Assembly (NCBI GenBank): GCA_964525605.1
Contig: CAZGKT010000005.1
Span: 9,122 to 73,121, forward strand
DNA from: an uncultured bacterium
GTDB taxonomy: Bacteria > Oederibacteriota > Muellerivitia > Muellerivitales > Muellerivitaceae
Length of the DNA: 64,000 bases
Direction: 5' to 3'
The translations under genes and the position numbers were made by a program. The number at the start of each line of letters is the position of its first letter. The first letter of the stretch is position 1. Of this stretch, positions 1 to 29,343 are shown piece after piece. The notes beneath the pieces are model-generated. The model ran no database searches, was not told the DNA's origin, and saw only the letters and a list, made by a program, of their open reading frames with translations.

Positions 1-1553
1 ATCGCAGCGCGGTGACCGGGGGAACCCGGGTCATCTCCGACTGGCTGATCGTTCGGGTGTCTTCTGATCCCGGCGAATCATTCCTGGATCGCATGATTTC
101 GATGGTGGAGGGCGCCAAGCGGCAGAAAACCCCTAATGAAATCGCTTTGAACATACTCTTGGCGGCCCTGACCATCGTGTTCCTTATCGTTTGCGCGACC
201 CTGCTCCCCTATTCCATCTACAGCGTCGCTGTATCCGGGGCGGGGACGGTGGTCACCGTGACGGTTCTGGTGGCGTTATTTGTTTGCCTAGCCCCCACGA
301 CCATCGGCGGGCTTCTGTCCGCCATCGGCATCGCGGGCATGGACCGTATGATCCAAGCCAATGTGATTGCCATGTCGGGTCGTGCCGTCGAGGCCGCGGG
401 CGATGTGGATATGCTCCTTCTCGATAAGACAGGAACTATTACTTTGGGCAACCGTCAGGCGACCGAATTAATTCCCGCTTCCGACGTGGACGTCAAGGAT
501 CTGGCCGAGGCGGCCCAGTTGGCTTCTCTGGCGGATGAGACACCCGAAGGGCGAAGCATTGTGGTTTTGGCTAAGGAAAAGTATGGCTTACGGGGCAAGC
601 TCATCGAGAACCTCAACGCGACTTTCGTATCCTTTACGGCCCAAACCCGCATGAGCGGGGTGGATATCGGAAAACGTACGATCCGCAAGGGTGCCGCCGA
701 ATCCATTGAAAACTTTGTAAAGGAACAGGGGGGGAAATACCCCGAGGATGTGCGCAAGGGTGTCGATTCCATTTCCCGCCTGGGCGGTACGCCCCTGGTG
801 GTAGCCGAGGGTAAAAAGGTTTTGGGCGTCATCCATTTGAAAGACATCGTGAAGGGCGGCATCCAGGAGCGTTTCGCTGAGCTTCGTCGCATGGGCATTA
901 AGACCGTCATGATTACGGGCGACAACCCCCTGACCGCCGCGGCTATCGCGGCGGAAGCGGGCGTAGACGACTTTTTAGCGCAAGCCACCCCTGAAACCAA
1001 ACTGAAACTCATCCGCGAGTCCCAGGCGGGAGGCAGGCTGGTGGCTATGGCGGGGGACGGCACCAACGACGCACCGGCCCTGGCCCAAGCCGACGTGGCG
1101 GTCGCCATGAACACCGGCACCCAGGCCGCCAAGGAAGCGGGCAACATGGTGGATCTGGATTCCAACCCCACTAAGTTGATCGAGGTGGTCAAGATCGGCA
1201 AACAACTCTTGATGACCCGGGGGTCCTTGACCACCTTCAGCATCGCCAACGATGTGGCCAAGTATTTCGCCATCATTCCGGCGGCCTTCGCCCTGACTTA
1301 CCCCGAATTGGACGCCTTGAACATCATGCACCTGCATAGTTCCCAATCGGCCATCCTTTCCGCGGTCATCTTCAACGCGGTCATCATCGTGTTTCTGGTG
1401 CCCCTGGCCCTCAAAGGAGTCACCTATAGGCCGGCTCCGGCTTCCCTTCTGCTTTGGAACAATTTTCTGATCTATGGCATCGGGGGGCTGATCGTACCCT
1501 TCATCGGCATCAAACTGATCGACATGATTTTGGTTGGCTTGGGACTGGTTTAA
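1..1553 (+). CDS. kdpB: Potassium-transporting P-type ATPase subunit B, 5' truncated by the window edge
   Basis: P-type ATPase motifs ([27 protein letters not shown]) and a KdpB-like C-terminal membrane region. Followed 18 bp later by kdpC. Confidence 0.9.
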
Positions 1554-1571
1554 CAATTTTAGGAGGATTTC

Positions 1572-2159
1572 ATGTTTAAAGAATTAGTGAAAGAAACGAA
1601 AAATTCGATCCTATTCGTGGCTGTGTTCACGGTCCTGGTGGGTTTGATCTATCCCGCTGTCGTAACCCTGTTCGGCCAAATCTTGTTTCCCCATCAGGCC
1701 GGGGGAAGTTTGATTGTGGTAAAAGGTAAGACCGTGGGTTCGGAACTCATCGGTCAGCCCTTCGATGACGTGAAATATTTCTGGGGCAGGCCCAGTGCCA
1801 CCTCGCCCCAGGCCTATAACGCCGCCAGTTCGGGCGGTTCCAATTCGGGCCCCACCAATCCCGATTTCATCAACACGGTCAAGGGTCGAGTGGATGCCCT
1901 CCGGAAAGCCCATCCGGATATGGCGGATGCCCCGGTGCCCATGGATCTCGTTACGGCCTCCGGATCAGGATTGGACCCTCATATCAGTCCCGCCGCGGCC
2001 GAATACCAGGTAACTCGGGTGGCCAAGGCTCGTGGGTTGGATGTTCAAAAGGTGAGGGATCTGGTGGACCAAAACACGCAGGGCCGCTGGCTGGGATTCA
2101 TTGGAGATCCGGGAGTGAACGTGTTGAAGCTGAATCTGGCTTTGGATTCCATGAAATAA
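1572..2159 (+). CDS. kdpC: Potassium-transporting ATPase subunit C
   Basis: 195 aa with a KdpC-like N-terminal TM helix and the conserved '[11 protein letters not shown]' region. Operon position after kdpB; GGAGG ribosome-binding site upstream. Confidence 0.85.
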
Positions 2160-2360
2160 GGACTAGAATTTTTTGTTGTTAGAAGAAACTTTGGGGCATT
2201 TTGCACCCAAGGGCGCTGCGCGTTGAATTCAGCTGAAATACCACAAACGTTTCCATCTTGCGTTAATGTGGTTGTTAATGATGCGACTTCTTTCACAAGG
2301 CCTCGTCCTTTCGGACGGTCCTTCCCGCATAAGCAGGCAATTAGAGTCAACGCTGGGTTT

Positions 2361-2852
2361 TCAAGTCGAACTACTCACGCCGCTTATGGAGACGGCGCTT
2401 TCGCTTTCGGATAATTTCCTTTTAACCAAACCTTTTTTGGGTGATCGCATGGCGGCTAATACCTTAACCAAAAGAGCAGAGAAGATATTTCTCTCCTCCA
2501 TGGTCAGGGGTGAAATCATGAAGTCGTCCACATTGGCATAGATATGACTGATTTCGGAAGCAATTTGGCGGCCCTTCTCCGACAAGGAAATCAGCCAGCA
2601 GCGGTGATCACTCGCATGGTCATTTTTTTGAATGAGACCCTGGCCCACCAGCGATTTAACTAACCGGTTCACGGATGCCGGGTCGGTGACGTTGGTGCGT
2701 GAAATGTCCGCCAATGAACATGATCCGCGGACGCTCACATGCCTTAACATTGCGGCTTGGTTCGGGGTAATTTCCAAACGTTTGAGATTCCGCCGGAATT
2801 CCCGATTTATTTTTTTGCGTATCAATTCCATTATTGCCAGCGAATTCACCAT
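2361..2852 (-). CDS. MarR-family transcriptional regulator
   Basis: 163 aa winged-HTH protein; 'LTPNQAAMLRHV...LADISRTNVTDPASVNRLVKSLVGQGLI...NDHASDHRCWLISLSEKG' matches the MarR fold pattern. Confidence 0.7.
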   Translation of the reverse strand: MVNSLAIMELIRKKINREFRRNLKRLEITPNQAAMLRHVSVRGSCSLADISRTNVTDPASVNRLVKSLVGQGLIQKNDHASDHRCWLISLSEKGRQIASEISHIYANVDDFMISPLTMEERNIFSALLVKVLAAMRSPKKGLVKRKLSESESAVSISGVSSST

Positions 2853-3079
2853 TTAACCGCCTCCTGTGGATTTCCCGACGTTCCAAAACGGTTTCCCGAT
2901 ACCTATTTGAGAAAGCCCGTGATAATTTTTTTAAATAAATTACCCTTTTTTTAAGGAACCTTGTCCGTCCTTTTAAGACTTGAAGGGATCGAAAGGGGGA
3001 AGGCCGTTTTCTTCCCCCTTCCCCTCCACGCTCTCCAAGGTCAATTTCACGTCTTAGATCTTTTCAGCCGGGTTTGAGG

Positions 3080-3589
3080 TTAGTTCGTGGTAATGTCCAG
3101 TTCAACCCGTCGGTTTTTCGACCGGTTATCCGCCGTGTCATTCGGAGCTACCGGTTCCATATCCCCTTTCCCGACTGCGCTCACATAATCCACTACGATC
3201 CCTTTTTTCACGAGTTCGAGCTTGATAGCGTCCGCCCGTCTTTGTGAAAGTTTTAGATTTCCGGCGGATGATCCGCTGTTATCGGTATATTCCAGGATGT
3301 TTACCAGATCTCCGGGATGATTTGCCAATACCGCCGCGATCCCATCGATCGTTTGAAGGCCTTCAGTACTCAACCGGGTGTGGCCTACCTTAAAGAGCAG
3401 GTCGCCGGCCAAATTGATCTTGAGTCCCTTCTCGGTCTGGGACACATCCCCCCAGGCGGAAAACGCCTTGACCTGTGGATTCACCGGGTTTTGATCCGCC
3501 GCGGTGGATTGAACCATTTTGCCGGTCGTGCCACATCCAGTTAAGGCGATGGCGCTTACCATTAACGGAATAAACCAATAGCTTCTCAT
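3080..3589 (-). CDS. OmpA-family lipoprotein (peptidoglycan-associated, Pal-like)
   Basis: Lipobox 'IALTGCG' after a signal peptide. C-terminal OmpA_C motif 'NLKLSQRRADAIKLELVKKG...NRSKNRRVEL'. A GGAGG ribosome-binding site precedes the internal ATG at 3589 (MRSYWF). Confidence 0.7.
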   Translation of the reverse strand: MRSYWFIPLMVSAIALTGCGTTGKMVQSTAADQNPVNPQVKAFSAWGDVSQTEKGLKINLAGDLLFKVGHTRLSTEGLQTIDGIAAVLANHPGDLVNILEYTDNSGSSAGNLKLSQRRADAIKLELVKKGIVVDYVSAVGKGDMEPVAPNDTADNRSKNRRVELDITTN

Positions 3590-3753
3590 TGAACTACCTC
3601 CTCGATTTTTATCCCTTCGCCCGCCTAAAACCTTTAAGCGGGGTTGAACCGGGTCCGATTCAGGGAGCTGACTTTCCGAACCCATCCGGGGATAGGGGGT
3701 GACCCTATCCCCCGACGGGTTCCCCGGGAAACCTCCCGGGCCCGTTTGGACTA

Positions 3754-3939
3754 TTATTTTTTGACCGTTGGGGTTGAACTGGCCTTCATGGCCTTTTTCT
3801 TTTTTTTCTTATGCGCCCCCTTATGTTTCATGGTCTTGGCGGTGGGAGTCTTGGCCGGGACGGTTTCTGCCGCGAATGCGGAACCGGACACCACCGCCAG
3901 GAACAAAACCGCCGCCAAAGAAGCGATCAATCTTTTCAT
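3754..3939 (-). CDS. Small secreted Lys-rich protein
   Basis: 61 aa with a signal peptide and a KKKKKK-rich tail. No recognisable family. Confidence 0.35.
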   Translation of the reverse strand: MKRLIASLAAVLFLAVVSGSAFAAETVPAKTPTAKTMKHKGAHKKKKKKAMKASSTPTVKK

Positions 3940-4132
3940 GACTTACTCCTTATTTTTAAAATGAACGGCAGGTGGGACCGCCCTTTAAGGGGCGGCCCCT
4001 TCCTCTTTCTTCTCAAACCGTCGTTTCCAAACTCCCCTCGGTAAAATGGCCGGGGTTGGATTAATCGCCCGGCTGGAGGAAGCCGGGCTTAGGCCCGGGG
4101 CTGCACCCGGGCCAGTTTTGGGAGGTGAGGGC

Positions 4133-4564
4133 TTAAAAATAATCAACCGGCAGTGTCTCCCTTGGTTTTGAATGGGGCACGAACCTGGGCGTGGCCGAAG
4201 CCAATTGCTTCGCCTGGTTGATATCTTCCATGGATATACCCGTCCGCACTTTTAAATCCTGACGCGGGTAAATCAAATCGGGGTCCTTGATCTCATCCCG
4301 GTTTGCCTTAAAGAGAAGAGGCCATTCGAAGGAATCGGAATAAATTCCGGGCCGACCGGCAATTTCCCACAAGTTGTCATGCCTCTTAACAACATAGTGA
4401 CTCAAGGCAATCAACTTTGGCTTTGCCGTGGGAGACTCCTCGTTCGCCATCGATTTTCCGGGAATATCCTCGCTTACAATTTTCTTACTGCTCCCGCAGC
4501 CGCATATGAGTACGGCCAAGAGTAAACAACCACCCCTGCGGATTATTTTTCTAGGGTTCAACAT
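4133..4564 (-). CDS. LysM-domain lipoprotein
   Basis: Signal peptide with lipobox 'LICGCG'. LysM-like segment 'HYVVKRHDNLWEIAGRPGIYSDSFEWPLLFKANRDEIKDPDLIYPRQDLKV'. Confidence 0.6.
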   Translation of the reverse strand: MLNPRKIIRRGGCLLLAVLICGCGSSKKIVSEDIPGKSMANEESPTAKPKLIALSHYVVKRHDNLWEIAGRPGIYSDSFEWPLLFKANRDEIKDPDLIYPRQDLKVRTGISMEDINQAKQLASATPRFVPHSKPRETLPVDYF

Positions 4565-4652
4565 GGCACTTCTCCTTTCGATTTATGAATTGCAACCTTT
4601 GAATCCTTTGTGTCCGCAACTTTCAACAAATATTCCCCATTCGTTTGTTAAC

Positions 4653-5090
4653 TCAACCCTTGGAAGGTTCCGCTTCCAAAGTCATTTTCCCTTCCGGAAG
4701 TGGGGAAGGTTTTTTCATGATAGGTTTGCTGCCCAAAAACAAAGTTGGGTTCTTCGCAGGGACATCCCCCGATCTAGATCCCAAAGGATTTGGAATAGTC
4801 CTTTTCCCGTTTTCATTCCGAAATTGGCCGTTGGCAGTCCCATTCAAAACCACAAAAGACGGTTTTTGAGACGAAACCTTTTGGGGCCAAACACCGGAAA
4901 TTAAAATCGTGTTTTTATGGGTTACTATCACGGAAAGTTGTTGAGAAGGCTGGAAATAGCCGCTAATCAACTTGAGGATTGGCTTATCCCAAGCAAGTAT
5001 TTCCAGTTTTTTCATGATCGTTCCTGAAAACCCGGAAACGATAATCAAAATGTAAACGCAGACACCCAGCCAAAATTCTTCGCGGCTCAT
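4653..5090 (-). CDS. Hypothetical membrane protein
   Basis: 145 aa with an N-terminal TM helix. No recognisable family. Confidence 0.3.
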   Translation of the reverse strand: MSREEFWLGVCVYILIIVSGFSGTIMKKLEILAWDKPILKLISGYFQPSQQLSVIVTHKNTILISGVWPQKVSSQKPSFVVLNGTANGQFRNENGKRTIPNPLGSRSGDVPAKNPTLFLGSKPIMKKPSPLPEGKMTLEAEPSKG

Positions 5091-5190
5091 AGATCCTCCA
5101 TTCGCGAGTTATTTCCGGGCGTGAAAAATCACGCGCGAATACCCACCGGGCCGAAACCAATCCCGGTTGGGGACTACACGAAAGGAATTT

Positions 5191-5517
5191 TTAGATTCTT
5201 AAAACGAGGTAAGTTTTTGGGGAGGAACTACCGGAGGCCAAAACAAGGTTCGAAAGGGTTTCCGGAGGAGAAGAAAACTTCTCCCGGGAAACACAAGGTG
5301 TCAGGGCCGTGAATTCAGGCGCCTCTTTTGCGATAGTTTGAAGGGTTACATGGGATGCGGAAAGATATTGGGAATCAACGGAAAAAGAATGGGATTGTTG
5401 CTGGCCGCTGGATTGAATGGACCCGTTGGTGGCGCAAACCACGACGGGCCGCATGGCGAACGCGGCCACCAAAGCCAGTAATAAAGCCCTCACAGGAATG
5501 TTAATCTTTTTAAACAT
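5191..5517 (-). CDS. Hypothetical secreted protein
   Basis: 108 aa with signal peptide MFKKINIPVRALLLALVAAFA. Confidence 0.3.
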   Translation of the reverse strand: MFKKINIPVRALLLALVAAFAMRPVVVCATNGSIQSSGQQQSHSFSVDSQYLSASHVTLQTIAKEAPEFTALTPCVSREKFSSPPETLSNLVLASGSSSPKTYLVLRI

Positions 5518-5835
5518 CGCCTCAGCCCCAATTCATTGGTTATGAGTCCTGTTAATTGCCATGGTTTTCCAAAGGTGTTTTCACCCTTCAATCACCTACA
5601 TTTATTTGACGAATCCATTCCCAAAAAAGTTGCTTCATGATCCAAATAGTTATGAAATTCATTGTGAAAATCAACGATCATTCAACCCTAAGACTTGGTC
5701 ACGGGAAAGGGATAAGAGGGAGAAAACCATGAAAAAAAGGAAATCAAGGTTTTCATCCTTTCGCGAAATGGTTAAGGGTCGCCAGGTTCTTTTCGGGAGG
5801 AGAAAATGAGCTTTAGGATCGAGGCCGGATAGCTT

Positions 5836-5917
5836 CCTGGGCCGCCTTCAATTCATTGGGGACCCGAGTGGAATGATGTTGAAACTGAATATGGTTTTGG
5901 ATTCCATTAAAAATTAA
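5836..5917 (+). pseudogene. Degenerate remnant of the kdpC 3' end
   Basis: DNA and translation parallel kdpC 2091-2159. Remnant frame reads 'FIGDPSGMMLKLNMVLDSIKN*' against kdpC '[20 protein letters not shown]'. A 10-nt insertion breaks the frame upstream. Confidence 0.6.
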
Positions 5918-5978
5918 ATAAGTAGATTCCACACGACTGAGACCCCCTTAGTAAAAGGGGGCTTATTCGGACTTCTGT

Positions 5979-7307
5979 TTATTGCTGGGTTGTCGGAAGA
6001 TTTCCCGAACTGGGGTCTGGAGCCGGTATGGTTCCGTCTCCCATGGCCGTGGTTTCCAGCGGATTGCCCTGGAGATCGAAGAAATTCACGGTTCCATCCG
6101 CGAGAGTCAAGTCAATCTCATAGGGCCCCCCGTCGCCTGGATCCACGAATAAAACCTTTTGAACCTTGGACGCCAGGTACATGGGTTTAAAAGCGGCGGG
6201 GACATTGGTGTCATATAAGAAGGCGTCCTGCTCGGTTCCTAAAATCTTGATCAGACGGGTGCTATCCGGGCTCACGATGGAAACGGGATTGGAGATGGCC
6301 GCCGTGGTCACTTCCACCTGATCGTTGGCCGAGTTGCAGGGAATGTACTGATCCCCGTTGTAAAAATACAGGTCGCCCACATGATAGGGATCCTGCCACC
6401 ACCACCAGCCTTCACTCCAAAAGCACCAGCGGTTGAAATCCGTGTCGTACCACCACCAGAGATCGCCATAACAGCGGGTCCAGAAGTAATTGTTTCCCGC
6501 GTACCATCCGTACCATTGATTTCCGGAAGTATCCAGGTAATGGCAATAATTGAAACTTTTCGTTTCATGCCAATAGTAGTGGTTTGGTTTAGTCTCGGTG
6601 AGATTCCATTGGTTGATGGCTTTGCGCCAATCGTCCTGATCGATCAAGGACATGGGGCCCCGGACCAACTGGTCGTTGTATTCCCGGGGTGAGAGGGCGG
6701 TGGCGGTAAGGAGTTGATGGCCGGGGCCTTTACGGGGGGTGCGGATAATGGAATGGGCCCGGTCATCGTCCAGCAATTGGGATCGTTTCGTCAGGGGATA
6801 GGGGATCTTGGCCACTCCAAGTTTTTGCAATTTTTTTCGAACGTATCCGGGCTGGTAAGGATGGTGCTGGTGCGGGGCGCGGCTTCTCAGGGCGGGAGCC
6901 TCATCGGCGGAGGAAGCGGGGCTGATCGTCAAGTCCGCGTTCGAGCTGGCAGCGAGATTTTGGGGTATGAATTCGGTTTGCAACTGCGGAGGGTTTTCCA
7001 GGGTATCCCAGGTGCCGCTGGGCTGGCTCACGTCGATTTCAACGGCCCGGTTACCGGTCCATTGATCAATCGGGGTGGAGGGGCGAACGGTACGGGGATT
7101 GGAAAAATTTGAACCGACAACGGGCCGGGACGGGGTCGCAGGCCGGGATTCGCTCTGGGGTTTGGCGTTATCTTCCGGTTGCGCGGTCGGAGTCGAGGTC
7201 GTTTTGCTCTCTGCCTTGGTTCGGGACCAGTCAACCTGCTGGGCCAGAAGGGAGCATGGAAAGGCCACCCACAAGAAGAGGGATAACCAAGATTTAAATT
7301 GTTTCAT
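5979..7307 (-). CDS. Secreted Trp/Tyr-rich protein, unknown function
   Basis: 442 aa with a signal peptide. The central ~70 aa carry >12 Trp ('WYGWYAGNNYFWTRCYGDLWWWYDTDFNRWCFWSEGWWWWQD'). Confidence 0.6.
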   Translation of the reverse strand: MKQFKSWLSLFLWVAFPCSLLAQQVDWSRTKAESKTTSTPTAQPEDNAKPQSESRPATPSRPVVGSNFSNPRTVRPSTPIDQWTGNRAVEIDVSQPSGTWDTLENPPQLQTEFIPQNLAASSNADLTISPASSADEAPALRSRAPHQHHPYQPGYVRKKLQKLGVAKIPYPLTKRSQLLDDDRAHSIIRTPRKGPGHQLLTATALSPREYNDQLVRGPMSLIDQDDWRKAINQWNLTETKPNHYYWHETKSFNYCHYLDTSGNQWYGWYAGNNYFWTRCYGDLWWWYDTDFNRWCFWSEGWWWWQDPYHVGDLYFYNGDQYIPCNSANDQVEVTTAAISNPVSIVSPDSTRLIKILGTEQDAFLYDTNVPAAFKPMYLASKVQKVLFVDPGDGGPYEIDLTLADGTVNFFDLQGNPLETTAMGDGTIPAPDPSSGNLPTTQQ

Positions 7308-7406
7308 ATTGATAGAGCCTTTCTCTTGGGTGTTCCAATATATATGAGATTAGGACGTAGCAAGGTCTCATTTCACCCCGTGCTCCAAAACGGGTTTTCG
7401 CCTCGT

Positions 7407-7814
7407 TTATTCCAATCCTATGGCTCTTTTCCATTCAGGGGTCGGGGCCATCAATTTTCGGGCCTTCAGGTCGAATAGGCCGACGACAAAGGTACCATCC
7501 GCCCCCAATTGGCCGTCTTCTTTGATCATTTCCTGGTAAATGTAACTGATCCTGCCCTTTTGTTCCTTGAGGGAGGTATGGATCCGGATCTTTTCCCGCA
7601 ATTTGATCTCGCGTCTGAACCGAATCTCGGCTTCTAAAAGCACCGGACCGTATTGAATTTGCTGAACCCGATCCGCCCCGAAACCCTGGGGGGTGATCCA
7701 TTCCCAACGGGCCTCCTCAAAGAGAACCATATAAGCGGCGTTGTTGACATGGCCGTAAGCATCCAGGTGTTGTTCCCGGATGAGGACTTCGTGGATGTGC
7801 ACGGGGGAGGGCAT
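7407..7814 (-). CDS. Acyl-CoA thioesterase, hotdog fold (4HBT/YbgC family)
   Basis: 'HVNNAAYMVLFEEARWEW' matches the 4HBT signature. Start taken at MPSPVHIH. Confidence 0.7.
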   Translation of the reverse strand: MPSPVHIHEVLIREQHLDAYGHVNNAAYMVLFEEARWEWITPQGFGADRVQQIQYGPVLLEAEIRFRREIKLREKIRIHTSLKEQKGRISYIYQEMIKEDGQLGADGTFVVGLFDLKARKLMAPTPEWKRAIGLE

Positions 7815-8694
7815 CAAATCACCTTTTTGGAAAATGGGATGGGGATGGCACAAGAAGGTTAAGTGGGTGGGTATCTCCCGTCAAGGCTTCGGTTGAACGT
7901 AAGGGCGAAAATCACGCCCTCCAAAACCGGATATTTACTGATTTTTTAATATCTTCCAACCCAATCATAATGAAATCCTTGTCGGCCTCAGACGTAAACT
8001 TCTCAAAATTCAGCCAAGGGAGGCAAACATGGATTCGGGTGTCTGGTCACTTGTGGCTCTGGGACTCATGCTGGCTTTGATTATTTATTACCTGGTTGGT
8101 TATTCCAAATAAACCAAAAGGTCTTTCGGTAAATGAAGTTTATTAGTGCCTTGGCCGTGTGATCTTGCCCGGCTTTAAATTATTGGTGGGAGAATTCTTT
8201 TTTACGACTGCAACTGACCCTGTGTGTTGCCCTTTATCAAGTCTGATTTGATCGAACTGCTGCTGAAAAGCATCCGCTTTCCTCGACCCGAGCCAAAATT
8301 CTTTTCAGGATTTTCTTGCCAACAGTTTTGATGAAGCATACCCCGGTGCATTCGGCTCGCTGGGGAAATTTCGAAGAGATGGTGTAATTGTTTCGCATTG
8401 AGTGGCACTTTTGCTAACAGTTTCTTAATGCTTTCCGCTTCCTTCCTAAGAGAATTCTAATCGATCCCTGACATATCATTCGCTTGCTTTTCAAAAACAT
8501 TCGTTCATAAAACCAGAAAGTGAACATTCATTTTCCTGGAAATCAGCTAGAGAGTTGTTTGGAAAATTAATTTTTTTGTTAATGATTCGTTAGGAATTGT
8601 TTGATTGAACAATTAATGTTCCGCGTCACACAAATTTGTTTCTTGTTCGTAAATTTTTGGTTTTGATTTTTAGGAAATGACGCGTTGTTAGGAT

Positions 8695-8710
8695 TGGCAC
8701 GAGGGTTGCT
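8695..8710 (+). promoter_or_regulatory. Sigma-54 (RpoN) -24/-12 promoter
   Basis: TGGCAC-gaggg-TTGCt matches the TGGCAC-N5-TTGCW consensus exactly. It lies ~170 nt upstream of the putative porin start and is flanked by GTTAGGA repeats. Confidence 0.55.
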
Positions 8711-8882
8711 TTAGTGAGTGCACGTGTTAGGAATCCGAACGGGTAAATTGGAGAACCGGACGGACTGAAGAAAAAGGATGGAGAAGTAAAAAGAGGAAGA
8801 CGCCTCCGATGTGAGAGACGGGGGTTGGTCGGGAGATGGATTCCTCGAAATTTACCCTGAGCGGGGAAAGGTGGGTTTTGAT

Positions 8883-10421
8883 ATGAAAACGAATAGGCTG
8901 AAAAAAATAATCGCGAGGGGGATGCCTCTATTCCTTTTCCTGGCGATGGCCTGGACGGGGTTGATCGGGAAGTCGTGGGCGGATCCTGCTGCTACGCCGG
9001 CGGCTACTCCTGCTGCGACCGAGGCGGCAACGCCGGCGGGGCTGCAGGGCTTTATGAACGATTATGACTTCACCTGGGTGAACGGTAACACCCATGAGAA
9101 AGATTTTCCCATGGCGGGAAAAGTCTTCTCGCCGGAACTGCTTTTTGACACGAATTACGCCTATCAATTTACCAATCCGAACGACCATATGATCAACGGG
9201 TCAACGGCCATGGCCATGGGCAATGAAGTGGAAGTTGAGCATGTCGGATTCGGGGGCGATTTCACCCCAGATCCACACGTTCATGCCCGACTCATGACCG
9301 AATTCGGCATGTACGCTAACCAGGTGCCAAGAAACGACGAAACCCCGGCGCGTGGAACTTGGAACATCATGCAAGGAACTCAGTTTCTCACTGAGGCCTA
9401 CGGCGGTATCCACCTTGATATCCCTGGCACGAATGGTATGAACATTGAAATGGGCCAATTCCCATCATATGTCGGCCTTTTCAGCTTTTATAACTCGGAA
9501 AACTGGTGCTACCAGGCTTCCTACGTTTCTTCCAACACACCCTGGTTTTTCACAGGAATGCGCATCCAGTTCTTCCCCAGTGATGCTTTGAAGATCGAGC
9601 CCTGGATCATCAACGGCTGGCAAACCTATGGTACGTTCGACAGCGGACTGGGTGGATCAGGGGTAAATCTTGGCTTTGAACTCCGCTGGGCGCCCAGTGC
9701 TGATTTGGTTGTGATTTCGAACAATTATGCGGGTCCGGATACGCCTGATTCACCTAATTGCAACCGGTACCACACGGATGACAGCGTTCTCTACAAGTAT
9801 TTGGACGATCCAAAATCGAACGGGATCGATAAGATGGCCTTTTCCATTACGGCCGACGCAGGTTTTCAACAAGGACCTATGTTCATTGGAAATACTGGGG
9901 CTCCTTTCGCCCTCAATTCGGGTCAGATCATTCCGACAGGTGGCGGATTTGTTAACGTCGCCGCCAATGGTCCCAACGCCGAACGCTTCTTGGGAGCCAT
10001 GATGTACGATCGGACTTGGTTTGATCACGATCACTGGGCCTTTACCTTCGGTGGCGGTTTCATGGACAACCCAGGACGCTACTTGGCGCTTATTCCGTCG
10101 ATTGATGGAGATTCGGCCCAGAACTATTCAAACGATCCTGCTGCAAACGCCGCATTTACGGAGAGCCCGGGCTTGCCTTGGACTTGCTGGGATTACGATT
10201 TCGGCTTCCAATACATGCCAACCGAATACTTGACCTTTGACCTGGAATACACGCATCGCTTTTCAACGATCAATTACTTCAACGGTCCGGGCGGGGAAAC
10301 TTCTTCGGATGGATGGCAAGCGGGAGCTGGCACAGGGTCCCAACAAGTCAGCGGGGGCTATACACCTAACCTCGTGCAATTCGAAGACGTCATCGTCGGC
10401 TCTATCATGGTGCACATTTAA
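8883..10421 (+). CDS. Putative outer-membrane beta-barrel porin
   Basis: Signal peptide, then a Pro/Ala/Thr linker (PAATPAATPAAT) and a long Gly/aromatic-rich beta-strand region. GGAAAGGTGG ribosome-binding site before the ATG at 8883. Confidence 0.55.
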   Translation: MKTNRLKKIIARGMPLFLFLAMAWTGLIGKSWADPAATPAATPAATEAATPAGLQGFMNDYDFTWVNGNTHEKDFPMAGKVFSPELLFDTNYAYQFTNPNDHMINGSTAMAMGNEVEVEHVGFGGDFTPDPHVHARLMTEFGMYANQVPRNDETPARGTWNIMQGTQFLTEAYGGIHLDIPGTNGMNIEMGQFPSYVGLFSFYNSENWCYQASYVSSNTPWFFTGMRIQFFPSDALKIEPWIINGWQTYGTFDSGLGGSGVNLGFELRWAPSADLVVISNNYAGPDTPDSPNCNRYHTDDSVLYKYLDDPKSNGIDKMAFSITADAGFQQGPMFIGNTGAPFALNSGQIIPTGGGFVNVAANGPNAERFLGAMMYDRTWFDHDHWAFTFGGGFMDNPGRYLALIPSIDGDSAQNYSNDPAANAAFTESPGLPWTCWDYDFGFQYMPTEYLTFDLEYTHRFSTINYFNGPGGETSSDGWQAGAGTGSQQVSGGYTPNLVQFEDVIVGSIMVHI

Positions 10422-10519
10422 GTCAAAGGATGGTTTGAGGTTAATAAAGTTTGAACTTGAAACGCTGGGCCTGATTTCAGGGATCCGGCTCAGCGTTCTC
10501 TCCTCCTTAAAAGCTGTAA

Positions 10520-10556
10520 AGGGGGGCGGTCTCAAAGCCGCCCCTTCCTTATTTTC
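10520..10556 (+). terminator. Rho-independent terminator
   Basis: Hairpin GGGGGGCGG-tctcaaag-CCGCCCC followed by TTCCTTATTTT. Confidence 0.5.
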
Positions 10557-10609
10557 GAGGTGCTAAAATGGACCCACAAATTGAAGCGGCACCGAAGAGA
10601 GTATTCAAG

Positions 10610-11305
10610 ATGACGAATAAATATTTGGTCTTAATGATTGAAGATGAAAAGCCGATTCGCCGTTTTTTAAAACCCTATTTGGAAAATCATGATTTCAAAG
10701 TGGTTGAGGCGGAAACCGCCCATGAAGGCCTGGCCCTCGCTTCTTCCCATAAACCGGATCTCATTCTTTTGGATTTGGGGCTTCCGGATTTGGACGGCTT
10801 GGTCGTTCTTCGCCGTTTGCGTGAATGGACCCAGGTTCCCGTTATTATCCTGACGGCCCGGGGTAAAGAAAAAGAAAAGGTAGAGGGGTTGGACGCGGGT
10901 GCGGATGATTATCTCGCCAAGCCCTTTGATGTTGAAGAATTGATGGCCCGCATACGCGTGGCCTTGAAACACTTGAATAACATGAAACAGCAGGGCAATG
11001 AACCGGTCTTTGAAACCGCCGATTTCAAAGTGGATTTATCGGCTCGAATTGTTACGGTTCATGGCAAAGAAGTCCATTTGACGCCGAATGAATACAACCT
11101 TTTGGCTTTGCTTATCCGTCACGCGGGTAAAGTAGTGACGCAAAAATTGATTATTGGTGAAATTTGGGGTCCCGGCGGGGATGAACAGGGACGAAATCTG
11201 CGTCTTTATATTCATCAACTGCGGCAAAAATTGGAATCGGACCCGGCCCTTCCCCAGTATCTTCTCACCGAACCGGGTGTGGGTTACCGGCTGAAATACG
11301 AATAA
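10610..11305 (+). CDS. kdpE: OmpR-family response regulator KdpE
   Basis: REC domain with phospho-acceptor context 'DLILLDLGLPDLDG' plus a winged-helix C-terminus 'LTEPGVGYRL'. Located immediately upstream of kdpD. Confidence 0.85.
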   Translation: MTNKYLVLMIEDEKPIRRFLKPYLENHDFKVVEAETAHEGLALASSHKPDLILLDLGLPDLDGLVVLRRLREWTQVPVIILTARGKEKEKVEGLDAGADDYLAKPFDVEELMARIRVALKHLNNMKQQGNEPVFETADFKVDLSARIVTVHGKEVHLTPNEYNLLALLIRHAGKVVTQKLIIGEIWGPGGDEQGRNLRLYIHQLRQKLESDPALPQYLLTEPGVGYRLKYE

Positions 11306-11421
11306 ATCCTGTTCTTGACCCCTTAATAATTAATTAAATCTTGCCCGAGCCCCGGTTTTTCCAATCATCCATTGAATTATTTGCGGTTAAATGGGTATGG
11401 CTGACCATCAAAGATGGGATC

Positions 11422-14127
11422 GATATGAAAGATAAACGCCCGAATCCGGATGAACTACTCAAAAAATTTAACGAAGACGAAAAAGCGCGTCACCGTGGAA
11501 AACTAAAGATCTTTTTCGGGGCCTATCCCGGCGTGGGGAAAACTTACACCATGCTGGAAGCCGCCCGCCTTAAAAAGGCTGAAGGGGTGGATGTAGCTGT
11601 TGGAATTTTGGATACCCACGACAGCAAGGAAACGGAAGCCCTCCTCGCGGGCATGGATATCATCCCACCTTTGGAAATATGGCAAAGGGGTGTGCTTTTA
11701 AAAGAATTGGATTTGGATCAGGCATTGAAGCGGCGCCCCGGCCTCCTGATCGTGGATCATTTGGCTCATTTGAACGGGGAGGGTATCCGCCACCTGAAAC
11801 GCTGGCAAGACGTGGAAGAGATACTTGAAAGTGGAATCGACGTCTATACCACCCTCAATGTTCAGCAACTCGAAAGTCTGCACGATATCGTCATCCGGCT
11901 CACCGATATTATGGTTTGGGAGACGGTTCCCGATTCGGTTCTTGAAAACGCGGATGAACTGGAACTGGTGGACCTGCCCCCTAGCGACCTTTTGGAACGC
12001 CTGGATAAGGACCTGATCTTCATACCCGAGGCTCATCAACCGGCCAATTGGCATTTTTTCAAGCGGGCCAACCTGGACGCTTTCCGCGAGATGGCCCTAC
12101 GGATCACGACCGATTGGGTGAACGATCAGGTCCAGATTCATCACCGGGGCATGGCCAGTTCCCAGGCCTGGCCCATTCGAGAACGACTGCTGGTCTGTAT
12201 CAGCGCCAGTCCCTCCTCCGCCAAATTGGTCCGAGCCGCCCACCGCATGGCCAAAAGCATGCGGGCCGACTGGACGGCGGTTTACGTGGAAGCGTCTTTT
12301 CACTCGGAAAACAAAGAAAAAGATTTGGAAGCCATGGCCATCCAACATTTAAGGCTGGCCGAGAGGCTGGGAGCGGAAACGGCCATCCTGACGGGATCGG
12401 ACTTCGTGGATGAAGTTCTGACCTACGCCCGGGATAAAAGCGTGACCCGGATATTAGTGGGCTCCCCGTCCAAGCGATCCTGGAGACATCTATTTTCAGG
12501 CTCCAGGGTCAACCGGTTATTACGGGAGTGCAGGGATATTGAGGTGGCCGTGACACCCGGGGATTCGGACGAACTGGCGCCCAAGGTGGTGGGAAAGTCG
12601 CCCTTGAAGTGGGATTGGAAAGGTTTCGGATTCACCTTTTTGGAAATGGCGCTTTGCACGGCGTTCAACCAAATCATTTTTATGTATATGGACCCCTCCA
12701 GCCAGACGCTCATTTACGTCAACCAAATCATGGTCTATCTCCTGGGCGTAGCGGTTTTGTCCGCTTCCCAGGGTGTATGGCCTTGTGTGGCGGCCTGTAT
12801 CCTGAACGTCCTTGCCTTCGACTTTTTTTTCGTCCCGCCCCTGTATGAATTTGACGTTTATGACAGCCGATATATCACCATTTTCTTGGTCATGCTGACC
12901 GTGGGCCTCATCATCAGCAACTTGACGGTACGCATGAAAACCCAAACCCGGCTCTCTCGCTTAAGGGAGCGCCGAACGGAAGCCCTTTACGGCCTTTCCC
13001 GGGAACTGGCGTCTACCCGTGGTACGAACGAACTTTTAAACGCGGCGGTGAAGCATATTTCCGAGGTCTTCGAAAGTTCGGTTACCGCTTTTCTACCCAA
13101 TGAACAAAATCGGCTTGAGGCGCGATGCTCCACCACCGCGGACCCGCATCTTTCATCCAAGGAAATGGGGGTAGCCCAGTGGGCCTATGACTTGGGGCAA
13201 ATGGCGGGCAAGGGGACGGATACCCTTCCGGACGCGCAGGAGCTTTATGTTCCCCTTTTGGCCGGGGGCGAGCCAGTGGGAGCGTTGGGCGTGAAATCTC
13301 ATTTCCCGGACAGGCTTTTTATTCCGGAGCAGCTCCACCTCCTGGAAGCTTTCGCTCACCAGACCGCCCTGGCGGTTTTAGGGGACAAACTGGCCGAGGA
13401 AAAGCAGGAAGCCCAGTTGCAGATGGAAACGGAAAAATTACGAAGTTCCCTCTTGAGCTCCGTATCGCATGATTTGCGCACCCCCCTGGCCACCATCAAG
13501 GGAGCCATTGGAGGATTGTTGGAGTCGGGCGAGGCGATGGGGGCTGCGACCCGGCGGGATTTTCTGGAAAACGTCCACGAAGAAACCGGCCGTTTGGAGA
13601 GGCTGGTGACCAACCTGTTGGAAATGACCCAGATCGAAGCGGGCACGATCCAACCCAAAAAGGAACCCAACGACCCACTCGATGTCATCGGCTCCGCGGT
13701 AGCCCGGGTTCGCAAGCGGATGAACGGAAGGAAATTGGAAATGAATGTTCCGCCCGACCTTCCCCTGGTTCCCATGGATGGTCTCCTCATCGGCCAAGTG
13801 GTGACCAATCTTTTGGACAATGCCTTGAAATATACCCCGGAAGGAAGTCCCCTCGAAATCACGTCTTGGATCGATAAAAATATATGGGTGGTCCAGGTGG
13901 CGGACCGGGGTCCGGGAGTGCCCGCACAAGACCTGTTGCATTTATTCGACAAGTTTTATCGGGGCCCGCAGAAGGAAAAAAAGAGTGGCGCCGGATTGGG
14001 GTTGGCCATTTGTAAGGGCATGGTCGATATCCATCGGGGGACATTGACGGCTGAAAACCGGCCGGAGGGTGGAATGATTTTCCGCTTGGCTTTGCCGATT
14101 GAACCGGAAGTTATAAAAGGTTTGTGA
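11422..14127 (+). CDS. kdpD: Sensor histidine kinase KdpD
   Basis: N-terminal KdpD domain 'RGKLKIFFGAYPGVGKTYTML', a USP-like region, four TM helices, a GAF-like region, the H-box 'SSVSHDLRTPLATI' and an ATPase domain. Start set at MKDKRP by comparison with E. coli KdpD. Confidence 0.85.
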   Translation, partial: DMKDKRPNPDELLKKFNEDEKARHRGKLKIFFGAYPGVGKTYTMLEAARLKKAEGVDVAVGILDTHDSKETEALLAGMDIIPPLEIWQRGVLLKELDLDQALKRRPGLLIVDHLAHLNGEGIRHLKRWQDVEEILESGIDVYTTLNVQQLESLHDIVIRLTDIMVWETVPDSVLENADELELVDLPPSDLLERLDKDLIFIPEAHQPANWHFFKRANLDAFREMALRITTDWVNDQVQIHHRGMASSQAWPIRERLLVCISASPSSAKLVRAAHRMAKSMRADWTAVYVEASFHSENKEKDLEAMAIQHLRLAERLGAETAILTGSDFVDEVLTYARDKSVTRILVGSPSKRSWRHLFSGSRVNRLLRECRDIEVAVTPGDSDELAPKVVGKSPLKWDWKGFGFTFLEMALCTAFNQIIFMYMDPSSQTLIYVNQIMVYLLGVAVLSASQGVWPCVAACILNVLAFDFFFVPPLYEFDVYDSRYITIFLVMLTVGLIISNLTVRMKTQTRLSRLRERRTEALYGLSRELASTRGTNELLNAAVKHISEVFESSVTAFLPNEQNRLEARCSTTADPHLSSKEMGVAQWAYDLGQMAGKGTDTLPDAQELYVPLLAGGEPVGALGVKSHFPDRLFIPEQLHLLEAFAHQTALAVLGDKLAEEKQEAQLQMETEKLRSSLLSSVSHDLRTPLATIKGAIGGLLESGEAMGAATRRDFLENVHEETGRLERLVTNLLEMTQIEAGTIQPKKEPNDPLDVIGSAVARVRKRMNGRKLEMNVPPDLPLVPMDGLLIGQVVTNLLDNALKYTPEGSPLEITSWIDKNIWVVQVADRGPGVPAQDLLHLFDKFYRGPQKEKKSGAGLGLAICKGMVDIHRGTLTAENRPEGGMIFRLALPIEPEVIKGL

Positions 14128-15371
14128 TCGCCATTAATCCATTCAAGGGATATTTCGTGAAAAAAATATTTAAAATTCAAATCGCACTTATCCTCTTCAT
14201 GCTCTGGGAAGTGAGCCAGGCCCATTCCCAAGAAATCGCCCATGTTCAATTTACTTTGGACAGTCAAAACAAAGAAGTTCATATCACCTATGACTTTTAT
14301 GATTCCCAGGACAGGGCCGAGGATGTATTGATTCAAGCATCAAATGATCAGGGTAAAACATGGGACATCCAGCCTTCCCCCCAATCTCTTCAAGGAGACT
14401 TGCATGGGGTGAGGCCGGGCAAGGGAAAAAGCATTACCTGGAAGGCCGGGGACGATTTCCAGGCCTTCTCGGCCGAATTGTTCCAGGTGAGGCTCCTCTT
14501 GGTGCAAGTGGTGGCCTCCGCCTCCTCCGCCTCCACCCTCCTGGACCCAACGGCGGAAGCCACCAAGGAAGCCGGCGCGGAGGAAAAGGAAAACCAACTT
14601 GAGCTGGATCAAACGAAAAATCTTCCCCAGTCAATCACCGGCAAGGATGGAGCGGCCATGGTGTTGATTCCAGCGGGATATTTCAGGATGGGCTCTCCGA
14701 AAGACAAGGGAGAAAAGGACGAGAAACCCGCGCACCAGGTTTGGGTTAGTTCTTTTTACATGGATCAAACATTGGTAACGTTCGACCGCTATGACAAATT
14801 TTGCGACGCCACGGGTCGGCCAAAACCATCGGATGGCTTTGTTCTTTACAACAAGCCCTCACCTCATTGGGGAAGGGGTAGCCATCCTGTCTTAAACCTG
14901 ACCTGGAAGGCGGCGGACGCCTATTGCAAATGGGCCGGGGGGAGACTTCCCACGGAAGCTGAATGGGAAAAGGCCGTCCGGGGGGGAACTGAATCGACTT
15001 ATTTTTGGGGAAATGATGGGGGACAGGCCTCCCAATACGCCTGGTATGAGGGAAATTCCTACTATAAAACCTGGCCGGTGGGTCAGTTAAAACCTAACCC
15101 CTTCGGCCTTTATGACGCCGTGGGAGATCTATGGGAATGGGTGTCCGATTGGTACAGCGCTGATTATTACGTCTCAAGCCCGGGACGAAATCCGACAGGA
15201 CCGGTCGAGGGCAAATCAAAAGTTTTACGGGGCGGATCTTTTGCCAACGGCGATGACTGTCTGCAGTCCGCTCACCGGAGTAATTGGGATCCCGAAAAAG
15301 AGGATGGACAGGAACTGATGGGACATTTACATGAACATGGCTGTCGCTGTGTTCAGGAAGCAGTTCAATAA
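14124..15371 (+). CDS. Secreted FGE-sulfatase (SUMF1/formylglycine-generating-enzyme-like) domain protein
   Basis: C-terminal half shows FGE-domain hallmarks ('RLPTEAEWEKAVRGG', 'GLYDAVGDLWEWVSDWY', 'VLRGGSF'). N-terminal ~150 aa are unique. The ATG overlaps the kdpD stop (ATGA); a GTG at 14157 is an alternative start. Confidence 0.6.
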   Translation: MIAINPFKGYFVKKIFKIQIALILFMLWEVSQAHSQEIAHVQFTLDSQNKEVHITYDFYDSQDRAEDVLIQASNDQGKTWDIQPSPQSLQGDLHGVRPGKGKSITWKAGDDFQAFSAELFQVRLLLVQVVASASSASTLLDPTAEATKEAGAEEKENQLELDQTKNLPQSITGKDGAAMVLIPAGYFRMGSPKDKGEKDEKPAHQVWVSSFYMDQTLVTFDRYDKFCDATGRPKPSDGFVLYNKPSPHWGRGSHPVLNLTWKAADAYCKWAGGRLPTEAEWEKAVRGGTESTYFWGNDGGQASQYAWYEGNSYYKTWPVGQLKPNPFGLYDAVGDLWEWVSDWYSADYYVSSPGRNPTGPVEGKSKVLRGGSFANGDDCLQSAHRSNWDPEKEDGQELMGHLHEHGCRCVQEAVQ

Positions 15372-15477
15372 AAGTAGTTTTTCGGCACTCCTATTCCATT
15401 CAATTCTCTGATGGCCTCAAGACCCGGGAAAGAATTTTTTTGGTTCGCAAAACGTGTGGTGCCCTCATTTTTTTCAT

Positions 15478-15565
15478 CCTAAACACTTTCCTAACGATGT
15501 TCTAACTCCTTCCTAACAAACGCCCCCGCAACAAATCCGGAACACCATCTAACAGCATCCTAATC
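15478..15565. promoter_or_regulatory. Cluster of CCTAAC/TCTAAC direct repeats at 11-12 bp spacing
   Basis: CCTAAAC at 15478, CCTAAC at 15490, TCTAAC at 15501 and CCTAAC at 15512, plus TCTAACAGCA at 15549 and CCTAAT at 15559. Lies upstream of the 15788 gene and the P-II array. Confidence 0.5.
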
Positions 15566-15787
15566 GGCTCTCGCCGTATATTTACGTTGCAAGAAGGGAA
15601 TTGGTTCCCGAAAAAATTTCCAAATAGCGGAACCGAAGAAAGAGAGGGGATTCCATGATTCAACTCATCGTACTCATGCTGGGTTTAGTTCTCGCCACAA
15701 CCGGTTTGTCCGGGTTCATTCTTTTGAAAAAGGAGGAAATGTTTTGAATTAAAAATTTTTTTAAAATTGCTGAAAAGGAGAAACAAG

Positions 15788-16222
15788 ATGAAAACTTTAA
15801 AAAGCACTTCAACCTTAGCGTTGGCCTTAATACTAGGAACGACCTCACTAAGTTTCGCGGGAAATCACCCGGCTTTGACCTATCCAGGAGCAGCCCTGGC
15901 CTCGGCCAATGCGCCGGTTCAAATTGAAGAAGTGACCCCATGGCACAAAGGGGCCATCAAATACGCTTCAGGTATCATGATGATCGGCGCTTGGTACCAG
16001 GCCTGTCCGGTGAGCCACATGATTCTTAATTCCAAGCACGAGGCCGAAGTGACCTTGTCCAATGGAAAAAAGATCATGCTCGCCTCAGCGGCTTTAAAGG
16101 ATGAGGTGGAAGCGAACCTTGGTAAATACGCACCCTTTATGTATGGAGCTTCGGCGATCAGCGGCGATTCTTCGGCTCGATTTGCCCAAGCCAGCCTTGG
16201 GAGCGTGTCGGTTGTGAAGTGA
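15788..16222 (+). CDS. Hypothetical secreted protein
   Basis: Signal peptide MKTLKSTSTLALALILGTTSLSFA. No recognisable family. Confidence 0.4.
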   Translation: MKTLKSTSTLALALILGTTSLSFAGNHPALTYPGAALASANAPVQIEEVTPWHKGAIKYASGIMMIGAWYQACPVSHMILNSKHEAEVTLSNGKKIMLASAALKDEVEANLGKYAPFMYGASAISGDSSARFAQASLGSVSVVK

Positions 16223-16261: not shown

Positions 16262-16663
16262 ATGAAAAAGATAGAGGCCATTATCCGGCCCGTTAAATTT
16301 GACGAAGTGAAGGCGGCTTTAGCCGAAGCCGGCTACGGGGGAGTTACGGTCACGGAAGTCGAAGGCCATGGCACCCAAAAAGGCTTCACGCAGGTTTGGC
16401 GCGGCCGTGAGTACAAGGTGGAACTGCTACCCAAGATCAAACTGGAAATTGTCTGTCCCGCCAAGGACGCGGCAAAGATAGTCCGTGCCATTATGAGAAG
16501 CGCCCAAACGGGCCAAGTGGGGGACGGAAAGATTTTCGTTTATGAAATCGCCGAAGCCTACCGGATCAGCAGCGGGGAAGAAGGAGAAAGGGCCCTTTCC
16601 GAAAACCAGGTTCCGAACCCAAAACCCGGTCGTCTGGGTGAAATTCTTTTTAGCAGGGCTTAG
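16262..16663 (+). CDS. glnB: Nitrogen regulatory protein P-II (GlnB/GlnK-like, canonical T-loop)
   Basis: 'MKKIEAIIRP', T-loop 'RGREYKVELLPKIKLE' with the conserved Tyr, and B-loop 'TGQVGDGKIFV'. Confidence 0.8.
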   Translation: MKKIEAIIRPVKFDEVKAALAEAGYGGVTVTEVEGHGTQKGFTQVWRGREYKVELLPKIKLEIVCPAKDAAKIVRAIMRSAQTGQVGDGKIFVYEIAEAYRISSGEEGERALSENQVPNPKPGRLGEILFSRA

Positions 16664-16699
16664 ATCGGCTGAACCAAAAATTGTCCGCATAAGGGGGAG

Positions 16700-16731
16700 G
16701 CCGACCTGAAAAGGCCGGCCTTTTTTTTTGA
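16700..16731 (+). terminator. Rho-independent terminator
   Basis: Hairpin AGGCCG...CGGCCT followed by a T9 run. Confidence 0.6.
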
Positions 16732-16753
16732 AACAGCCTGAGGGGAGCACGTC

Positions 16754-17140
16754 ATGTTAAAAATTGAAGCGATAATTCGGCCCGAAAAATTAGAACCAGT
16801 TTGCGCTAGATTACGGCGGGTAGGTTACCCGGGAATGATGGTGATGGAACTGGAAGGTCATGGCCGCCAAGGGGGCCTGCATTCTCATTGGCCCCAGGGG
16901 ATGAGGGTCGATTTTCTCCCCAAAGTACGGATCGAAATGGTGGTGGAAAACAGGGATCAAGATAAGGTGATTCGCGCCATCCTTTTGGGTGCGCGGACCG
17001 GTGAAGAAGGGGACGGAAAGATTTTCATCACCGAGATCAAGGAAGCCATCCGGATCCGCACGGGCGAGAAGGGAATCAATGCCCTTTCGATGGAGAAGGG
17101 GTCTGTCCGTGAAAAGGTGGTCGTTTCCAGCCATTCTTAG
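16754..17140 (+). CDS. P-II-like signal-transduction protein, divergent T-loop
   Basis: 'MLKIEAIIRP', 'EGDGKIFITEI' and 'IRIRTGE' keep the P-II fold, but the T-loop 'HSHWPQGMRVDFLPKV' has no Tyr. Confidence 0.7.
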   Translation: MLKIEAIIRPEKLEPVCARLRRVGYPGMMVMELEGHGRQGGLHSHWPQGMRVDFLPKVRIEMVVENRDQDKVIRAILLGARTGEEGDGKIFITEIKEAIRIRTGEKGINALSMEKGSVREKVVVSSHS

Positions 17141-17209
17141 AACGCTTAAATATTCAAAGCTAAGCCGGGTATTTCTTTAAATTTAATTACGGAAAAAGGG
17201 ATTTCAATT

Positions 17210-17545
17210 ATGAAACGTATTGAAGCGATTGTTCGGCCGAATTCCTTAAGGGCGGTTTTGGCCAGTTTGGAAGCCGTCGGCTATGCCGGAGTGACAGTCC
17301 TGGAGGCCCAAGGCCATGGGACGCAAAAAGGCGCAACCGATATTTACCGAAGTCAAAGTGTGGAGGGGCTCCTTCCCAAGTTAGTGGTTTCGATGGTGGT
17401 GGAAGACAATTTGGTGGAAAAGACCATCGATTCTATCGTCAAGGCTGCCCGCAAGGGCGAAATTGGGGATGGAAAAATATTTATCTATTCGGTCGTGGAT
17501 GCCGTGCGGATCCGCACTGGAGACAGAGGCAAAGCCGCCCTCTGA
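17210..17545 (+). CDS. P-II-like signal-transduction protein, divergent T-loop
   Basis: 'MKRIEAIVRP', 'GEIGDGKIFIYSV' and 'VRIRTGD'. The T-loop 'ATDIYRSQSVEGLLPKL' is non-canonical. Confidence 0.7.
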   Translation: MKRIEAIVRPNSLRAVLASLEAVGYAGVTVLEAQGHGTQKGATDIYRSQSVEGLLPKLVVSMVVEDNLVEKTIDSIVKAARKGEIGDGKIFIYSVVDAVRIRTGDRGKAAL

Positions 17546-29326: not shown

Positions 29327-29343
29327 CTGTCAACCATCTAATC

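Follow-up and report, generated by a model that had tools for sequence, protein, structure and literature searches.

Why does a decayed copy of the end of kdpC lie several genes away from kdpC itself? The question is raised by a 64,000-nucleotide (nt) stretch of DNA, called the window throughout, from an uncultured bacterium of the Muellerivitaceae (phylum Oederibacteriota; GenBank assembly GCA_964525605.1, contig CAZGKT010000005.1, positions 9,122 to 73,121 of the forward strand), whose left end carries kdpB and kdpC. A first-pass annotation had described a kdp operon split at its kdpC/kdpD junction by an insertion flanked by a degenerate copy of the kdpC 3′ end. We compared the locus with contigs and loci of relatives and of conspecific strains, which are labeled below with L and a number. 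The segment between the two copies (2160-5850) is a derived insertion, the decayed copy marks the former end of kdpC, and kdpC itself is intact. The inserted genes form an envelope module that is conserved in the clade, and an illegitimate insertion with duplication of the target probably placed them there.

The repeated end of kdpC and the empty site in relatives

A repeat finder matched positions 2096-2156 to 5851-5911 over 61 nt without gaps, at a constant offset of 3755, with 48/61 positions identical (79%). Alignment of the last 90 nt of kdpC to the rest of the window, on both strands, gave a best local score of 66. This lies ~19 standard deviations above the scores of 100 shuffled queries, which had a mean of 25.4, a standard deviation of 2.1 and a maximum of 33. 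At the protein level, tblastn matched the downstream fragment to kdpC in frame with 14/22 residues identical (one side of the aligned pair: LQFIGDPSGMMLKLNMVLDSIK). The fragment still translates as FIGDPSGMMLKLNMVLDSIKN, or ...LQFIGDPSGMMLKLNMVLDSIKN, up to its stop codon in the kdpC frame, with one extra codon between the aligned part and the TAA at 5915-5917. The recurrence of the kdpC end in decayed form is thus borne out, within narrower limits than first drawn. Upstream of ~5850 only a GGGCCGC 7-mer at 5839-5845 aligns to kdpC, given a 3-nt gap, and local alignments of 5518-5850 with kdpC were no better than shuffles. Because this upstream similarity is not significant, the secure fragment is 5851-5917, with a possible extension to ~5839, rather than a copy starting at 5836; the 10-nt insertion once placed within the repeat is absent from the ungapped significant core. 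A further ~70 decayed bases upstream of the fragment, suggested by MAFFT, were discarded on the same local alignments.

The top KdpC matches in the genome collection were metagenome-assembled genomes labeled candidate division FCPU426 (76-88% identity; L004-L008), the group to which the soil bacterium of the window belongs. In our literature search, FCPU426 was mentioned solely in environmental surveys, of soil and peat among others. Three relatives show what the site looked like before the insertion: L087, L104 and L085, whose KdpC proteins are 93%, 90% and 79% identical to that of the window. In each, kdpF-A-B-C is followed by a hydrophobic small open reading frame (ORF) of 26-35 amino acids (aa) and then by the convergent gene p442; the stop codons of kdpC and p442 are 110-145 nt apart, with only the small ORF between them. 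At the DNA level, L087 and L104 match the window across kdpB-kdpC as far as 2159-2182, and again from 6042 onward, within p442. The kdpC ends of both relatives can be aligned to the fragment, which adjoins p442 in the window, with 61 nt from stop to stop. Because it sits at the kdpC-end position beside p442, as in the empty-site relatives, the intervening segment is a derived insertion and the fragment, which has no function, marks the old end of kdpC. The original proposal of an insertion with a second copy of the kdpC 3′ end at its border is therefore upheld; a search for relatives sharing the layout without the repeat came out opposite, with three relatives showing the empty site.

We next compared the fragment with intact kdpC ends over 60 comparable sites. 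It differs at 11 from the left copy of a 98%-identical strain, at 13 from the left copy in the window and at 15-22 from the kdpC ends of seven relatives, and it carries the clade-specific FIGDP motif, where more distant KdpC proteins have LGEP. With L087 as the third taxon, ~8 changes fall on the branch of the fragment, 2-4 on that of the functional copy and 8 on that of L087. In this small sample, the pattern is consistent with a duplicate of the lineage's own kdpC tail that has been drifting neutrally while changes in the functional copy were silent. The insertion predates the 2% split of the two sampled strains, and it is absent from lineages at 90-93% KdpC identity. Conspecific contigs from several independent samples (L001, L092-L095, L100-L102) are identical to the window or 97.7-99.7% identical in DNA, and the insertion and fragment are present on every one that spans the site. 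Because the arrangement is on all site-spanning contigs from different samples, it is fixed in the sampled population.

The fragment is followed by a stem-loop with a minimum free energy of -24.2 kcal/mol (z = -3.9; 0/200 shuffles fold as well), and no comparable hairpin follows the intact kdpC. This stem-loop probably once served kdpC and p442 as a joint terminator.

Two further observations concern variation at this locus. Just after window position 5919, in L093:1-28 and L094:1-27 of the 98%-identical strain, the sequence following the fragment's stop differs from that of the window (TAAGGGAACCTCTAAAAATTGATTGTAG) and has no match in the window or in any fetched locus; both contigs end there, and the right junction may be polymorphic. 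We rejected L092:1-920, the distal end of that contig, as an alternative right junction, as it is low-complexity sequence of (CA)n/(GT)n-like type encoding His-Thr and Cys-Val repeats and is probably an assembly artefact. Within kdpC, positions 1889-1988 hold 18 almost entirely synonymous differences in 100 nt between the window and the L092/L093 strain. The two differ by only ~0.8% across kdpB and are otherwise ~99% identical over kdpB and the remaining kdpC, and neither version of the patch is clearly closer to any sampled relative. It looks like a short tract of homologous recombination from an unsampled allele.

Gene content and composition of the inserted segment

All plausible genes between the two copies lie on the minus strand, as the first-pass annotation had stated: those for a MarR regulator, an OmpA-like lipoprotein, orf61, a LysM lipoprotein, orf145 and orf108 (Table 1). 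The true start of the OmpA-like gene is probably at 3589 (3080-3589), which would give a protein of 169 aa with the lipobox LTGC, given that its homologues have 168-169 aa. The ORF at 5561-5809 is probably not a gene, because it is frameshifted in the 98%-identical L092 and has no family matches. The spacer that holds it (5518-5850) has no homology to kdpC or to the flanks of the module in relatives.

The same genes recur in the same order in FCPU426 relatives, with 35-67% amino-acid identity, at other chromosomal places. In L090 the module, MarR included, follows cmk, a DAHP synthase gene, plsC and rpsA and precedes a 982-aa gene and exbBD/tonB. In L088, L096 and L098 it lies beside a gene for OmpH (Skp-like) and lacks MarR, and L099, a short contig, has only part of the module and neither OmpH nor MarR. 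L090 and the empty-site locus L085 belong to the same assembly, though not necessarily to the same genome. The insert is one clade-conserved six-gene envelope module. No second copy of the module and no 'home' context for it were found within the window, and neither the non-coding ends of the insert nor the gap at 7854-8810 contains traces of rpsA, p982 or OmpH.

The composition of the insert is mildly unusual. Its guanine-plus-cytosine (GC) content is 0.485 against 0.529 for the window, in the 4th percentile of windows of the same size, and its tetranucleotide distance is in the top 6%. However, the module of L090 has a GC content of 0.477 against 0.524 in its flanks. Because the module is equally GC-poor at this other location, composition provides no argument for a foreign origin, and we rejected both deviations as evidence of one. 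The GC check suggested earlier thus finds a low value, without the implication it might have carried.

We also screened the insert for genes of mobile elements, with Pfam for every annotated ORF and for ten ORFs in alternative frames, and with PHROGs. No recombinase, transposase or phage-specific family was detected in any frame of 2045-5810. The earlier statement that no integrase or transposase remains in the window therefore stands for that stretch, which is what the screen covered. There are no terminal inverted repeats at 2160 / 5850 and no tRNA gene in the window, and an Rfam scan of 1-16000 gave no matches.

Table 1 Features of the kdpC locus and its surroundings (window coordinates)
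Feature	Position	Strand	Remarks
kdpB, 3′ part	12..1553	+	KdpB of FCPU426 relatives 91-96% identical (amino acids); rest of the gene lies beyond the window's left edge
kdpC, intact, 195 aa	1572..2159	+	Pfam KdpC, E=3.8e-79, positions 3-181 of 182; 93% identity to L087 KdpC
Left repeat copy (functional kdpC 3′ end)	2096..2156	+	Repeat families D3 and D1
Inserted segment, ~3.7 kb	2160..5850		Edges approximate: left 2160-2182, right 5839-5850
MarR-family regulator, last gene of the module	2361..2852	-	Pfam MarR, MarR_2; 35% identity to the L090 MarR that follows the OmpA-like gene
OmpA-like peptidoglycan-binding lipoprotein	3080..3685	-	Pfam OmpA, E=9e-17
orf61, small conserved module protein	3754..3939	-	62-67% identity in L088, L090, same module position
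LysM-domain lipoprotein, 143 aa	4133..4564	-	Pfam LysM; 57% identity in L088, L090
orf145, function unassigned	4653..5090	-	35-41% identity in L088, L090, same position; no Pfam match
orf108, signal-peptide protein, first gene of the module	5191..5517	-	44% identity in L088, L090; no Pfam match
AT-rich spacer upstream of orf108	5518..5850		GC 0.415; holds the mechanical ORF 5561-5809
kdpC-tail pseudogene fragment	5851..5917	+	Last 20 codons, extra codon, stop; extension to ~5839 possible
Stem-loop	5917..5983 (core 5943-5949 / 5955-5961)	+	Fills the gap from the fragment to the stop codon of p442
p442, conserved hypothetical	5979..7307	-	Convergent neighbor of kdpC in empty-site relatives; homologues P0002, P0003, P0006; no Pfam family
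4HBT-type thioesterase	7407..7853	-	Syntenic partner of p442, adjacent to it in L084, L085; Pfam 4HBT_2
Porin-kdpE-kdpD unit	8811..14127	+	Separate unit, outside the insertion; same order in L084
BBP2 porin	8811-10421	+	Pfam BBP2
kdpE	10568-11305	+	Response-regulator domain in the identical L100 gene
kdpD	11341-14127	+	KdpD domain in the identical L100 gene

How the segment may have come to lie behind kdpC

The explanation that we find most probable, though well short of certain, is that the six-gene module was inserted right behind kdpC by an illegitimate event with target duplication, leaving an ordinary rearrangement scar. We favor it because the insert lacks mobile-element features and the fragment resembles the sequence of its own lineage. 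In the ancestor of the species, kdpFABC ended ~110-145 nt from the convergent p442. The 3.7-kb block carrying the module then entered, inverted, exactly where kdpC ends, and the last 60-90 nt of the gene were left on both sides of it. The left copy stayed joined to kdpC and under selection, while the right copy, stranded by p442 and the old terminator hairpin, became a pseudogene fragment in which ~8 of 60 nt carry substitutions of its own and one more codon precedes the stop. The underlying event may have been a one-off in which chromosomal DNA was inserted or translocated into a staggered break without a recombinase, the fill-in of which would yield a long target duplication, or else a template switch during replication. 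The small ORF has been lost, presumably in the insertion or in a later event.

Several points weigh against this explanation. Transposases make short target duplications, far below the 61 nt or more seen here. Neither flank of the insert retains a significant trace of the small ORF, and at least one extra deletion must be assumed. L004, L006, L007 and L008 lack the adjacency of kdpC and p442. The context of the module differs in every relative examined, which leaves room for some mobility, although the differences may be due only to deep divergence. Neither a staggered break nor a template switch can be demonstrated from sequence alone, and the module may have been translocated or acquired as a second copy.

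The segment could instead be a decayed integrative island of the e14/icd type, in which an integrase used the kdpC 3′ end as its attachment site and brought its own replacement end, which now completes kdpC; the native end was pushed out to the far junction, and the mobility genes were later deleted, so that only cargo is left. Such an island would account for the direct repeats that flank the insert, one of them rebuilding the 3′ end of the target gene as is classical for these islands, for the empty sites in L085, L087 and L104, and for a GC content in the lowest 4% of same-size windows. However, neither a recombinase nor a remnant of one is present in any frame of the insert, and all six genes belong to a clade-conserved chromosomal module, an untypical cargo whose GC content is just as low at its other location in L090. 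Four other genomes have no direct repeats flanking the module. Moreover, the longest exact run common to both repeat copies is 11 nt (TTGGATTCCAT) and no clear core site is visible, although decay may have erased one. We consider an island unlikely.

Homology-facilitated illegitimate recombination is a documented mechanism (PMC3240628) and has been proposed for orphaned Rhs 3′ regions and displaced immunity genes of type VI secretion systems (T6SS) (PMC5361080). Here, DNA from a related donor strain in which kdpC already adjoined the module would have paired at the kdp genes on the left and joined illegitimately within the kdpC tail on the right. This would leave an orphaned 3′ fragment of the recipient, as at 5851-5917 beside the native p442, and homologous recombination does seem to act on kdpC, as judged from the 18-difference patch at 1889-1988. 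Yet among 80 genome loci, 80 metagenome loci and the contexts of seven OmpA homologues, no genome outside the species has kdpC beside the module, and the original insertion would merely be moved to an unseen donor. In addition, sliding identity to L087 shows no step across 1-2159 (the anchor could lie left of the window), and the fragment is closest to the species' own kdpC. Import of this kind seems to us quite improbable.

We give still less credence to the idea that a tandem duplication once placed another kdpFABC copy, or a larger segment, between the module and p442, and that deletion has spared only its final 60-90 nt as the fragment. Several FCPU426 relatives do have multiple kdp regulatory and porin paralogues, and the sharp 5′ edge of the fragment is what a deletion would leave. 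But there is no trace of kdpA, kdpB or the 5′ part of kdpC by the fragment, the empty-site relatives have a single operon abutting p442, and at least two large events plus the arrival of the module would be needed where one insertion suffices.

There is only a slim chance that the module is a recombinase-less mobile cassette with an undescribed target-duplicating mechanism, or that it has been kept antisense to kdpFABC read-through, coupling potassium limitation to envelope remodeling through MarR. Finally, a chance resemblance or functional motif in an ancestral layout can be dismissed: in L004, L006, L007 and L008, too, the gene next to kdpC is not kdpD and the genes that follow vary, but the alignment score far above shuffles, the in-frame protein similarity with its clade-specific motif and the position of the fragment at the orthologous kdpC end of three empty-site relatives all speak against it.

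The event is of a known kind, a routine rearrangement scar, and poses no new biological question. It does show a block of genes inserted at the end of an operon of essential function without damage to it, in a candidate phylum represented solely by metagenome sequences, and the decaying pseudogene tail provides a dated marker for the species. It also corrects the local annotation, in that kdpC is complete, the kdp pump genes are undisturbed and the operon is not split.

Neighboring units and comparison with known systems

The kdpE and kdpD genes lie further downstream in that order, as first reported, and follow a BBP2 porin gene. Their order had been read as atypical and as part of the pattern that pointed to an insertion, and the insertion site as a kdpC/kdpD junction; neither view holds. 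In L085 and L087, a kdpD-kdpE pair, D first, precedes kdpF and points away from it, and no empty-site relative has kdpD immediately 3′ of kdpC. In L084:1-9018, a porin-kdpE-kdpD unit faces a second kdpD-kdpE pair, which is followed by the thioesterase gene and p442, and in L007:12471-20437, downstream of kdpC, the porin gene is present three times and kdpE twice. Porin-kdpE-kdpD, which L084 has in this very order and L007 in part, is a separate, porin-linked paralogous unit, independent of the insertion and not a by-product of it, for which E then D is normal in this lineage. A further KdpE paralogue, 71% identical, is encoded at 24459-25193 (-). Between the thioesterase and porin genes, 7854-8810 is an AT-rich stretch of ~950 nt (GC 0.415) with no convincing ORF. 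In L084 the kdpD-kdpE pair occupies the matching position; no trace of that pair was detected in the gap of the window, nor was any Rfam family.

Two small ORFs accompany kdp genes in the clade. Directly after kdpC, seven FCPU426 relatives have a hydrophobic single-helix ORF of 25-39 aa, mostly ending in ..(Y/F)Y(V/L)FFN(D/E/K). It lies at L087:1550-1659, where its stop overlaps that of p442, at L085:11336-11444 and L104:1648-1790, and also just 3′ of kdpC in L004, L005, L006 and L008; the Kdp system of the clade may thus include a small subunit or an accessory peptide that annotations have missed. No copy of it was found on either side of the insert or elsewhere in the window. We tried 2160-2205, which resembled L087 by eye, as native spacer plus the start of this ORF and rejected it after a shuffle test (z = 1.2). 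The second is an ORF of 94-95 aa without a Pfam family between kdpA and kdpB, at L087:4378-4662 in the closest relative and at L092:7345-7632 in the conspecific strain. An ORF at this position is unusual for kdpFABC operons.

Elsewhere in the window, 16262-17545 holds three tandem paralogous genes (133, 128 and 111 aa; 45-50% mutually identical), with a fourth paralogue 11 kb further, at 28991-29374; by eye only, we take their products to be P-II-like nitrogen-regulatory proteins. The strongest tetranucleotide outlier of the window is at ~45500-48500 (distance 0.31-0.36 against a mean of 0.18) and overlaps a 1318-aa ORF at 46450-50406.

How does the kdpC locus compare with known systems? Like a transposon or insertion sequence, the insert has a direct target duplication on both sides. 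Unlike those elements, it has no terminal inverted repeats and no transposase, and its duplication is at least 61 nt. The orphaned 3′ fragments at Rhs loci and in the T6SS of V. cholerae likewise consist of an upstream gene, new DNA and a stranded 3′ remnant, and need no mobile-element genes. There, however, incoming DNA replaces a variable toxin tip, recurs and builds arrays, whereas here we see one event, no toxin/immunity logic and no identified donor arrangement.

Insertion of e14 or phage 21 into the 3′ end of icd offers the same geometry. The e14 element leaves a 163-bp pseudo-icd′ in Escherichia coli (PMC6379469). In both cases an insert lies at the 3′ end of a protein-coding gene that stays intact, a displaced and diverged duplicate of the tail stands at the far junction, and relatives show the empty site. 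By contrast, the kdpC insert has no integrase, excisionase, phage genes or recognizable identical core; its genes are a native, clade-conserved envelope module, and the insertion appears fixed rather than excisable.

Compared with the canonical kdpFABC-kdpDE locus of the E. coli type, the window has intact kdpB and kdpC, its close relatives have a full kdpFABC in the usual order, and kdpD/kdpE-type two-component genes are nearby. The differences are that kdpD-kdpE diverges from kdpF on its upstream side in L085 and L087, that there is another, porin-linked kdpE-kdpD unit, and that the native neighbors 3′ of kdpC are a small hydrophobic ORF and an unrelated gene in convergent orientation, in the place of kdpD.

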